Below, in pieces: positions 2,004 to 2,720 of a DNA stretch of 64,000 nucleotides (positions within the stretch are counted from its first letter, which is position 1; every line of letters begins with the position of its first letter). The position numbers and the translations under genes are program-made. Under the pieces are notes generated by a model. That model saw only the letters and a program-made list of their open reading frames with translations. It ran no database searches and was not told the origin of the DNA. Origin of the DNA: Dehalococcoidia bacterium (GTDB taxonomy: Bacteria > Chloroflexota > Dehalococcoidia > Plut-88900); contig OZ240215.1 of the NCBI GenBank assembly GCA_965197585.1, positions 2,368,001 through 2,432,000 of the forward strand, in the 5' to 3' direction.

Positions 2004-2033
2004 TTGACCAAAGTAAGACACATGTACTATATT
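2004..2033 (+). promoter_or_regulatory. Sigma70-like promoter with a LexA-box-like motif in the spacer
   Basis: TTGACC (2004) - 18 nt - TATATT (2028); spacer contains AGAC-ACAT-GTAC; homologous arrangement at 31650-31678. Confidence 0.55.
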
Positions 2034-2039
2034 CACCCC

Positions 2040-2720
2040 CGATAGGCCAATCACTCACCCTAAACCCAAAGGAGGAACCAAAACACAGGGGGAAGCCAAT
2101 CCCCGGCCCCCGAGGACTCAACGTCTAAGCCCATCCCAAAGGGCGGCCCACCCGCCGCCCCTCGGCTCAAGCGAAAGCGGAACGTCCGCCTACGGAGGAC
2201 CGCCATCTCCTCATATCAAAGGCCCAGGCTCACCTTCCCCCGCAACCCAGGCGATGGAAGATCCACAGACTATGCTCGGCAGGCCCCGTCCAACGACGCC
2301 CCTGCCGATTCAACGCCCCCCATCATCGGGTGCGTTTACCCCGGCCCATTGCGCGCCGGTTTTCCCGGCAGGTCAACCGACCCCCGGTTTAGCAAGGCCC
2401 TCGTGCCTTGTTTGTCCCGCCGTCCCAGCCATCCGTCTATCCGGCGGATGCACCAGGACGCCGGTTATGAAAGTCCGCCTCAGGCGGCATCTTCCCCGTC
2501 AGCGGTCTGGTCAAGCGCCGCTGCCGGTGGGATCGGCCCCACACAACCCTGACCACAGCCGACAACGTGTGGGGATAATCCAGCCCGGCGCCGACGGCTC
2601 GGCAGCAACCCCCGGCCTGGTTTCTAGTCACCGGACCTTCCATCGCCTGCCCCTCCAGAACAGACATGAACCCACAAATCCTTGCTACAACTCAATATCC
2701 CATCGAGGCTGGTTGCCCCA
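2040..2720 (+). ncRNA. Putative large structured ncRNA, copy A (family not recognised)
   Basis: 2069-2264 is homologous to the reverse complement of 31448-31620; helix 2248-2264/2633-2649; many internal hairpins; no reading frame conserved between copies. Confidence 0.55.

Follow-up and report, generated by a model that had tools for sequence, protein, structure and literature searches.

We analysed a window of 64,000 nucleotides from a Dehalococcoidia bacterium, positions 2,368,001 to 2,432,000 of contig OZ240215.1. The source DNA is a single 3.43-Mb contig (genome G000), and its sister genomes are labelled G001-G008. Two intergenic regions of the window, copy A on the plus strand and copy B on the minus strand, hold related elements that we call type I, each made up of a promoter, a conserved 5' block, a long-range helix that encloses a variable inner domain, and an A/C-rich tail. 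A preliminary description of the window had presented the pair as a new family of large non-coding RNAs (ncRNAs) with a constant scaffold and variable cargo. Our data suggest that A and B are probably genus-specific, non-autonomous DNA transposons, similar to MITEs (transposable elements that are miniature and have inverted repeats) but large (~0.74-1.0 kb), carrying a promoter and having a fold that is conserved on one strand. The genes next to the two copies encode Amidohydro_2, hydantoinase, GHMP kinase, amidase and tRNA-Pro. The features, in window coordinates, are as follows.

1985-2700, plus strand: the whole of copy A (type I, cargo family 4), with an approximate left limit; the conserved right-end module is missing, so the right limit is unfixed
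1990-2033, plus strand: copy A promoter region, with a GTGACAC box at 1990-1996, the -35 box TTGACC at 2004-2009 and the -10 box TATATT at 2028-2033
2069-2264, plus strand: copy A 5' block, with an orphan Shine-Dalgarno-like AAGGAGG at its start (2069-2075)
2248-2264, plus strand: copy A 5' arm of the long-range helix, CAGGCGATGGAAGATCC
2265-2632, plus strand: copy A variable inner domain ("cargo"), 368 nt, one of seven family-4 members in the genome (88-96% identical)
2633-2649, plus strand: copy A 3' arm of the long-range helix, GGACCTTCCATCGCCTG
2650-2700, plus strand: copy A tail, A/C-rich and G-poor
30975-31713, minus strand: copy B, whole element, type I, cargo family 3, with limits from the empty-site comparison and ends (T)GATCCCGTTCAC ... 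CGAACGAGTACA
31712-31719, minus strand: copy B direct repeat at the junction, left copy AGCATTTG, with the ~6-bp target-site duplication within it
30968-30975, minus strand: copy B direct repeat, right copy AGCATTTG, overlapping the last base of the element and the first bases of the tRNA-Pro -35 box
31650-31692, minus strand: copy B promoter region, with a GTGACAT box at 31692-31686, the -35 box TTGACA at 31678-31673 and the -10 box TATTAT at 31655-31650
31448-31620, minus strand: copy B 5' block, including the 5' arm GGCGATGGAAGACGC at 31462-31448
31077-31447, minus strand: copy B variable inner domain, 371 nt, one of ten family-3 members in the genome (89-97% identical)
31062-31076, minus strand: copy B 3' arm GCGTCTTCCATCGTC, with one G.U pair with the 5' arm
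30975-31061, minus strand: A/C-rich tail of copy B, from 31061 to ~31010, with its right-end module GTGTCACTAACCTACCGAACGAGTACA at 31001-30975
30843-30969, minus strand: host tRNA-Pro (30919-30843) and its promoter TGGACG-16-TATAAT (30969-30942), which follow copy B directly; they are the target of the insertion and lie outside the element

The architecture that had been claimed for the two copies was borne out, with all five features at the coordinates given for them. Sigma70-like promoters lie where they had been placed: TTGACC-18-TATATT at 2004-2033 (plus strand, copy A) matches the consensus at 10 of 12 positions and TTGACA-17-TATTAT at 31678-31650 (minus strand, copy B) at 11 of 12. We found one such site per region; shuffled regions gave a mean of 0.3. 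The claimed shared block was recovered when 2069-2264 was aligned with the reverse complement of 31448-31620, which gave long identical runs, and in copy A it contains the pairings GAGGA/UCCUC and GGGGGAAG/CUUCCCCC and the hairpin GGGCGGC/GCCGCCC. The long-range helix, with its G.U pair in copy B, is present in the minimum-energy and centroid folds of both copies, and its inner end differs with compensation (GATCC/GGACC in copy A and GACGC/GCGTC in copy B). Likewise, the two tails are similar and A/C-rich, no start codon follows AAGGAGG in either copy, and no transposase or reverse transcriptase gene was found adjoining copy A or B.

The preliminary description had suggested counting copies with blastn. 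We found 57 copies of the 5' block 2069-2264 in the genome, far beyond a chance pair, and 58 with a covariance model built from 48 block sequences. All 57 copies have both helix arms, GCGATGGAAG and then CTTCCATCGC 303-531 nt downstream. The helix GGCGATGGAAG/CTTCCATCGCC has an invariant 11-bp core, and it encloses the variable domain. Elements have a mean size of ~730 nt without ends, copy B measures 737 nt, and type I copies make up ~1.2% of the genome.

The order of parts is common to type I copies. A GTGACA(C/T) box is followed by the -35 box TTGAC, the -10 box TAtatT, a leader of ~30 nt and AAGGAGGAACCAAAA, which is without a start codon; the GTGACA box and both promoter hexamers are conserved across copies. 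The conserved block of ~190 nt continues with GAGGACTCAACG..AGCCCATCCCAA, a hairpin, CGCCATCTCCTC and CCCTTCCC, and then come the 5' arm, the inner domain and the 3' arm. The tail, whose composition over 57 tails is A 0.40, C 0.39, G 0.12 and T 0.10, ends in CCCCACAA..CTGAAKAA. The right-end module GTGTCACTAAYCTACCGAACGAGTACA was found in 27 of the 57 copies in this genome and in 44 of 124 elements over all genomes. Many tails, and sometimes the block or the inner domain, have taken up one to three insertions of small hairpin repeats (TCCGCCTCWGGAGGA and relatives).

So far the element family is restricted to one genus. The covariance model gave 23-70 matches per genome in all nine genomes of the genus and none in the three genomes of other genera of the family (two closed, 94% complete), and blastn of the 5' block found it absent from 32 of 32 genomes outside the genus. 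When 185,579 species genomes were scanned with a pattern, the matches listed all came from metagenome-assembled genomes of Dehalococcoidia bacterium. Parts of the locus were also found in contigs from RNA libraries, one of which is labelled sponge metagenome. Carriage by phage was rejected, as a 28-nt pattern had no match in viral contigs.

Type I copies have no conserved frame, in agreement with the claim that they are non-coding. Most copies have stops in all three frames, length differences within a family are not multiples of 3, and a Pfam scan of open reading frames (ORFs) inside elements gave no hit. Coding from an ATG in the 5' arm was rejected, as this frame has at most 82 codons in 51 of 57 copies. 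In the other six it is longer (99-173 codons); all six belong to the cargo family of copy A, and their lengths differ by numbers that are not multiples of 3. Copy A itself has a 166-codon ORF (window 2254-2754, plus strand) without a Pfam hit, and the frame is open, at 99-173 codons, in six of seven family members.

Empty sites, element ends and insertion targets

We compared the copy B locus among genomes of the genus with 5.8 kb around copy B as the query. Query positions 2776-3512, which are copy B, were missing in G001, G003, G004 and G007, with both flanks aligned, and the two aligned segments of G003 overlapped by 7 nt. Copy B was present in G005 and in G002. The empty site, ...GGCATTTGGACGG..., stands in front of tRNA-Pro, and the filled site reads ...AGCATTTGA/TCCCGTTCAC ... 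CGAACGAGTACA/GCATTTGGACGG..., where slashes mark the junctions. At two further loci, L026 and L030, the element is present in G000, G002 and G005, whereas G001, G003 and G007 have the empty site; at L026 the junctions GTACATGCTTTT/ATCCCG... and ...GAGTACATGCTTTTGACACC compare with the empty site CCGTACAGGCTTTTGACACC. The repeats at the junctions are AGCATT(TG) at copy B, TGCTTT at L026 and CAGGGT at L030. Clean empty sites and direct repeats of 6-8 nt were thus found at all three loci tested, and exact junction repeats of 5-9 nt were found in 8 of the 27 copies that have both ends. Since all three loci are filled in G000, G002 and G005, the insertions look derived in this group. The unit between the repeats includes the promoter, and this points to a DNA rather than an RNA intermediate.

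When the right end is read as its reverse complement, TGTACTCGTTCGGTAGGTTAGTGACA, it has TG, CGTTC, TAG and GTGACA in common with the left end TGATCCCGTTCACATAGAGGGGTGACA. This suggests that the element ends form an imperfect terminal inverted repeat, of which (T)GATCCCGTTCAC...GTGACA is the left part and TGTCAC...GAACGAGTACA the right part. At 17 of 27 positions the right end also agrees with TGTAAGTGTTAGGTAATTCGTTGACAG, the left end of the insertion sequence (IS) that is commonest in the genome, where 21 such ends are present. The 320-aa product of this IS has its best match in the IS481 family (NF033577, E 3e-54), at 184 bits and so below the cut-off of 224 bits; an example lies at G000 1248150-1249250 (ORF L005:248-1207). 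The preliminary description had set its RNA family against IS or MITE ends, and such ends are what we found, in the form of empty sites, direct repeats at three of three loci, inverted-repeat-like ends and a right end like that of an IS481 relative.

None of the 57 type I copies, nor any of 10 related type II copies described below, has a transposase gene inside it. The abundant IS481-like IS inserts into a hairpin like a repetitive extragenic palindrome (REP), between GTCATTCC and ATTCCGAGGCTCCGCGAGGAATC, with a 5-bp duplication and in either orientation (14 copies aligned). It often lies less than 1 kb from the elements because REP-like hairpins cluster beside them. As its target and duplication differ from those of the elements, we regard it as a relative of the presumed mover and not as the mover. 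This IS and an IS present in three copies were both rejected as the autonomous partner, since their ends and targets are different. A further IS, with a 423-aa rve product and its own 28-bp inverted ends, lies at G000 659304-660660 (L188), upstream of the copy at 660720. It has inserted in the promoter of that copy, between the GTGACAT box and the -35 box, and a solo left end stands 1.3 kb away; its rve gene was rejected as a partner, as it belongs to an unrelated IS with ends of its own. Extra arm pairs at G000 679197 and 2872568 were likewise rejected, as they lie in coding-looking sequence and about one pair is expected by chance.

The mechanism that we propose would run as follows. Each copy would be bounded by imperfect terminal repeats and a target duplication of ~6 bp, and an IS481-like DDE transposase would act on it in trans. 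Its promoter would be either a relic of a transposase promoter or a captured promoter of host type, and would drive a folded, untranslated RNA of ~650-900 nt. Termination by Rho in the C-rich tail would keep this strong promoter from disturbing the host promoter downstream.

Insertion is oriented: a host TTG(AC) -35 box follows the right end after exactly 5 nt. Of 44 module-bearing elements, 29 have TTG at precisely this distance and two more have it after 4 nt, compared with a genome background of 0.013 per position. In the cases that we inspected this TTG starts a host -35 box with its own, non-repeated spacer and -10 box. Since its first T belongs to the duplicated hexamer, the -35 box is part of the target and not of the element. 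By crude ORF calls, the downstream gene is co-oriented at 44 of 57 copies and the upstream gene at 22 of 57. A common downstream function was rejected, as the 20 downstream proteins scanned belong to mutually unrelated families. Eight of the 57 downstream genes are paralogues of one family, and the member scanned, beside copy A, is Amidohydro_2. Linkage to tRNA genes was rejected as well, with a tRNA within 150 nt downstream of only 2 of 57 copies.

A GTGACA(C/T) box also stands 6-8 nt upstream of the -35 box at many ordinary promoters, such as those at G000 2984631 (tRNA), 594243, 2672356 and 3421139; in the window it is seen at 1990-2009 and 31692-31673. In this organism the box may serve generally as an upstream promoter element or as a binding site. 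The right end (..GAGTACA, 5 nt, TTGAC) would recreate a GTGACA-like context for the host promoter.

Folding, transcription and alternative readings

Pairing was analysed in 16 elements of the B family from several genomes, for which RNAalifold gave a consensus of 137 pairs. We found that 98.2% of 2177 cells are standard pairs, compared with 40-47% when partners are slid by 1-3 columns. Five pairs (13 cells) are changed on both sides, a result equalled by none of 500 shuffles, and the one-sided changes are nearly all from G-C to G.U. Among the variable pairs, 21 show G.U (81 cells) and 9 show A.C (10 cells, of which one badly aligned row supplies at least 5). Similarly, 32 of 124 elements have G.U in the 11-bp core and 8 have A.C, with position 11 left out as it is shifted by a bulged A in one subfamily. 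Since G.U far outnumbers A.C, the promoter strand appears to be the folded strand, and together with the 98% pairing this makes a folded RNA payload plausible. The hairpin after CCCAA also keeps pairing in at least six stems (GGGCGGC/GCCGCCC, GGGCAGC/GCTGCCC, GAGCGGC/GCCGCTC, GGCCG/CGGCC, GGTCGC/GCGACC and GGCCC/GGGCC), and the length of the G run in GGG(GG)AA(G) tracks that of the C run in (C)TTCCC(CC) in most rows. The antisense strand of copy B folded with a z of +1.1.

The payload matches no known RNA. As had been expected, Rfam gave no family: at the gathering threshold the whole window holds only two tRNAs, nothing credible was seen in either copy at E up to 10, and ARAGORN found no tmRNA. 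We therefore rejected RNase P, tmRNA, 6S, SRP, group I and II introns, OLE, GOLLD, ROOL, HEARO and riboswitches, for want of an Rfam match.

These results could also be read as host-beneficial, trans-acting structured ncRNA genes that mobility has only multiplied, with the scaffold serving for processing or protein binding and the inner domain for specificity. A consensus promoter in all copies, promoter-strand pairing with an excess of G.U, the compensated hairpin stems, the lack of an Rfam match, the stability of the copy A fold (z -5.4) and the maintenance of 23-70 copies in nine of nine species of the genus all agree with such genes. However, dozens of diverging copies with presence/absence polymorphism are typical of selfish repeats and not of a host gene, and the positions of the copies are set by host promoters. 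In addition, copy B folds no better than shuffles, the 5'-block consensus across families is without a compensated pair, and expression is only putative. We therefore consider host RNA genes unlikely, though they are the best of the alternatives. From the preliminary claim of a new ncRNA family we retain the scaffold, its own promoter and the pairing on the promoter strand; what carries them is a mobile repeat in 57-58 copies, so that an RNA family survives only as the possible payload of a mobile element. The copy number, the limited number of inner-domain families, and the ends and direct repeats that mark insertion had been missed.

No intrinsic terminator was found on the element strand of copies A and B. 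The genome has a Rho gene, and Rho entry (rut) sites are C-rich and G-poor. The predicted element transcript may thus be ended by Rho in the C-rich tail. On the opposite strand of the start of the 5' block (2111-2089, minus strand, in copy A; 31584-31598, plus strand, in copy B) we noted a hairpin followed by a T-run, which is terminator-like and could keep antisense transcription from passing out of the left end of the element.

Somewhat less likely again than host RNA genes is a mobile cis-regulatory module, a "mobile promoter" with a long leader that would control the downstream gene by read-through, attenuation or occlusion. The co-oriented downstream gene (44 of 57), the right end that abuts a -35 box (29 of 44) and the lack of an intrinsic terminator are what such a module would show, and at the copy A locus G003 keeps only a GTGACAT...TTGCCC...TAAAAT promoter before the same gene. 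On the other hand, the downstream genes are served by promoters of their own that come directly after the element, and since these genes also belong to unrelated families there is no common signal to sense. Thirteen of the 57 copies face a gene on the other strand, and the C-rich, G-poor tail resembles a Rho entry site and not a leader.

It is also conceivable, although improbable, that the element is a transposon centred on its RNA, in which the folded 0.65-0.9-kb RNA acts in the life of the element itself and the transposase is encoded elsewhere. Such an RNA might guide or license insertion 5 nt before the -35 box, or might be a sponge or scaffold by way of its orphan Shine-Dalgarno sequence, and the exchangeable inner domain would be its programmable part.

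Type II relatives and the exchange of inner domains

Ten further copies, which we call type II, have the same promoter but a different leader, made up of a hairpin CCCGAC...GTCGG with compensated variants and then AAAGGAGTCCC-ATG. They lie outside the window, at G000 62860, 684518, 1445638, 1577663, 1590859, 2280200, 3022084, 3035253, 3062928 and 3386770 (loci L184-L187). All ten have AAGGAG, 5 nt and ATG, followed by an open frame of 220-455 codons; its first 660 nt contain no stops, compared with 1-7 in each other frame. Indels preserve the frame, and 393 predicted proteins in public data are related to it. Its ratio of nonsynonymous to synonymous polymorphism (pN/pS) is 0.87, against 0.95 and 0.87 in two control frames; substitutions by codon position number 2098, 2044 and 2318; and neither Pfam nor NCBIfam gave a match for the ORF. 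The frame runs out of the element and stops at places that are unrelated. Taken together, these sequence comparisons suggest that something selects against stops but not for protein sequence. A frame conserved across homologs, which the preliminary description had named as contrary to its reading, is thus found as an open frame in the ten type II copies, but without constraint at the protein level. As a separate observation, the ORFs MPRGGRRPGAGAPKGNYNAFKHG... and MPSGGPRPGAGAPRGNRNRLRHG... (G000 683400-683560 and 1219090-1219200), which follow a type II copy and a GTGACAC-type promoter, encode products that we take to be reminiscent of small phage proteins.

The type II copies raise the alternative of a protein-coding root, with type II coding for a protein of 220-455 aa that is basic and disordered, and with type I copies, including A and B, as its pseudogenes. 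The Shine-Dalgarno and start arrangement in ten of ten copies, the 660 nt without a stop, the frame-keeping indels and the 393 related proteins speak for it, as does the type II inner domain, which by eye resembles family 4 of copy A. We nevertheless hold it to be very improbable: pN/pS is as in control frames, substitutions are even over codon positions, no Pfam or NCBIfam family matches, and the frame ends at unrelated places outside the element. Furthermore, type I copies are closed in all frames and yet keep the promoter, the helix and the pairing, which is unexpected of decaying pseudogenes.

The inner domains had been described as dissimilar and exchangeable. This holds for copies A and B, which fall in different BLAST clusters and show no BLAST similarity to each other, but across the genome the domains fall into a limited set: six families (12, 11, 10, 7, 6 and 6 members) and five singletons, with 18 clusters among the inner domains of the 124 elements from all genomes. 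The extension of the arms strictly tracks the family of the inner domain, being GGTCC/GGACC in families 2, 4, 8 and 9 and GACGCC/GGCGTC elsewhere. The 5'-block hairpin, in contrast, does not keep to one type per cargo family; family 3, for example, has six copies with form 2, three with form 1 and one other.

Different domains were found at the same site in sister genomes. At the copy B site the ends, promoter, block and tail are unchanged in G005, but the inner domain, of ~350 nt, is another one, and at L026 and L030 the alignments of G002 and G005 end after the block and resume in the tail, with intervening lengths that differ. The copy A site holds an A-type copy in G002, a type I element with another domain in G001, a type II element with a longer domain in G005, and no element in G003. 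The mosaic of scaffold and inner domain would arise by recombination or gene conversion between copies. Different domains at one site may reflect such exchange or repeated insertion at a hot spot. Among 124 inner domains we found 1928 direct similarity segments of at least 100 nt and no inverted one, which excludes an invertible switch. Arms that act as sites for a site-specific recombinase around an invertible or exchangeable cassette (inverton, shufflon) are therefore scarcely credible, even with invariant 11-bp inverted repeats around a variable segment that differs at the same insertion in sister species, because no segment is inverted, G.U but not A.C is tolerated, as in one strand rather than in duplex DNA sites, and the helix extends into the domain with family-specific pairs.

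We thus return to non-autonomous transposons with a folded payload as the probable identity of A and B, and several points weigh against this. The open frame of type II is unexplained by it. No transposase gene was found between element ends in this genome or at 30 rve loci taken from the 131 rve matches listed for the nine genomes of the genus. The likeness of left and right ends is modest (TG, CGTTC, GTGACA), and part of the "inverted repeat" may be promoter-related, since GTGACA is a general host promoter box. Thirty of the 57 copies, copy A included, have no recognisable right module, and their limits are undefined. As to the fold, the B-family structure was tested on the same 16 related sequences from which it was derived, and the 5'-block consensus across families has 17 pairs with none compensated, so that the block is conserved mainly as sequence. 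The invariant 11-bp core could equally be a protein-binding or DNA-level site. Fold stability is mixed, with a z of -5.4 for copy A (0 of 20 shuffles as stable) and -1.3 for copy B (2 of 20). Contigs from four of four RNA libraries in three studies cover parts of the 5' block, which is a multi-copy sequence; they give neither strand nor ends and could come from DNA carry-over. At 90% likeness these contigs leave 2319-2682 (the inner domain of copy A) and 2683-3027 uncovered, which carries no weight, as the strains differ and contigs drop variants. Lastly, the proposed steps of Rho termination and insulation are pure inference.

Comparison with known systems and further observations

The Correia/NEMIS elements of Neisseria are a MITE-like example, and MITEs are usually under ~0.5 kb in size. 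Like MITEs, the present elements occur in many copies, all of them intergenic, without a transposase and with termini that resemble inverted repeats, target duplication and insertion polymorphism; MITEs can likewise bring promoters and fold into RNA hairpins when transcribed. Unlike MITEs, they are 2-5 times longer and have at the left end a complete consensus promoter that points inwards, a large internal helix that closes a variable domain of 300-530 nt, pairing on one strand, and oriented insertion at a fixed distance from a host -35 box, and no autonomous parent was found. IS481 elements typically have a target duplication of ~6 bp, and many IS have the promoter of the transposase gene at the left end. 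The elements resemble this family in their TG... ends, in the 17 of 27 right-end positions of the resident IS and in a target duplication of ~6 bp. They differ in that they have no transposase gene, and the resident IS uses a REP-like hairpin target with a 5-bp duplication. Bacterial MITEs and non-autonomous IS derivatives, such as MITEAba12 and the MITEs of Coxiella, are treated in PMC6382973 and PMC5896051 and in the reviews PMC3184786 and PMC10969869.

Like OLE, GOLLD, ROOL, raiA and HEARO, the interior spans several hundred nt with many helices, its own promoter and no frame, and like them it is first described without an assigned function; none of the five gave an Rfam match here. Those RNAs are present in single or few copies per genome, are widely distributed and show strong covariation, whereas the present family has 23-70 diverging copies in one genus, transposon ends and weak covariation across families. 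The bridge RNA of IS110 and the omega RNA of IS200/IS605 lie beside a recombinase or nuclease gene in the same element and function together with it. The elements described here are similar in being mobile with a promoter-driven structured RNA, here a predicted one, in the non-coding part; they differ in that no recombinase or nuclease gene is present, and no search for guide-target complementarity was made. Matus-Garcia and colleagues reportedly described putative mobile promoters in 2012. Our elements share with these a repeated, promoter-bearing sequence upstream of unrelated genes, but have 0.65-0.9 kb of conserved folded sequence after the promoter, and the host gene keeps its own promoter. 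Large structured bacterial ncRNAs are treated in PMC10861870 and PMC11109978, and small RNAs that flank ISPpu9 in PMC8450116. A literature search over titles and abstract openings, which is weak evidence of novelty, found no such element described in Chloroflexota or Dehalococcoidia.

Type I copies alone account for ~1.2% of the genome, and the family stands before dozens of unrelated host promoters in every species of the genus, so it likely shapes transcription and genome change in uncultured Dehalococcoidia. For the biology of mobile elements it clearly exemplifies oriented insertion at a set distance from -35 boxes, and it offers a non-autonomous element with an interior that is not mere filler but is conserved as a fold of one strand. 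For RNA discovery it is both a warning and an opportunity, as scans for large conserved intergenic structures will catch such elements, and separating a selfish repeat from a functional RNA requires the empty-site test.

Some smaller observations concern the genome and the surroundings of the copies. The plus strand of G000 has a C content of 0.31 and a G content of 0.28. By cumulative GC skew (minimum at 2.65 Mb and maximum at 1.06 Mb, the putative origin and terminus), 21 of the 57 copies are co-oriented with their replichores. Small palindromic repeats crowd the intergenic DNA of the genus, at window 1860-1985 and in many regions of G000-G008, and are of the kinds GTCATTCC..GGAATCC, CCCTCTCCC..GGGAGAGGG and (GGAACA)TCCGCCTCWGGAGGA. 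At window 2786-2830, between a GTGACA-type promoter and the gene, there is an operator-like repeat CAATCAAA..(T)TCGTGCCTG..ATCAATCAAAA. The same repeat occurs upstream of other Amidohydro_2-type paralogues (G000 2672356, 2704883, 2760761, 3345552 and 3421139), which suggests a shared regulator.

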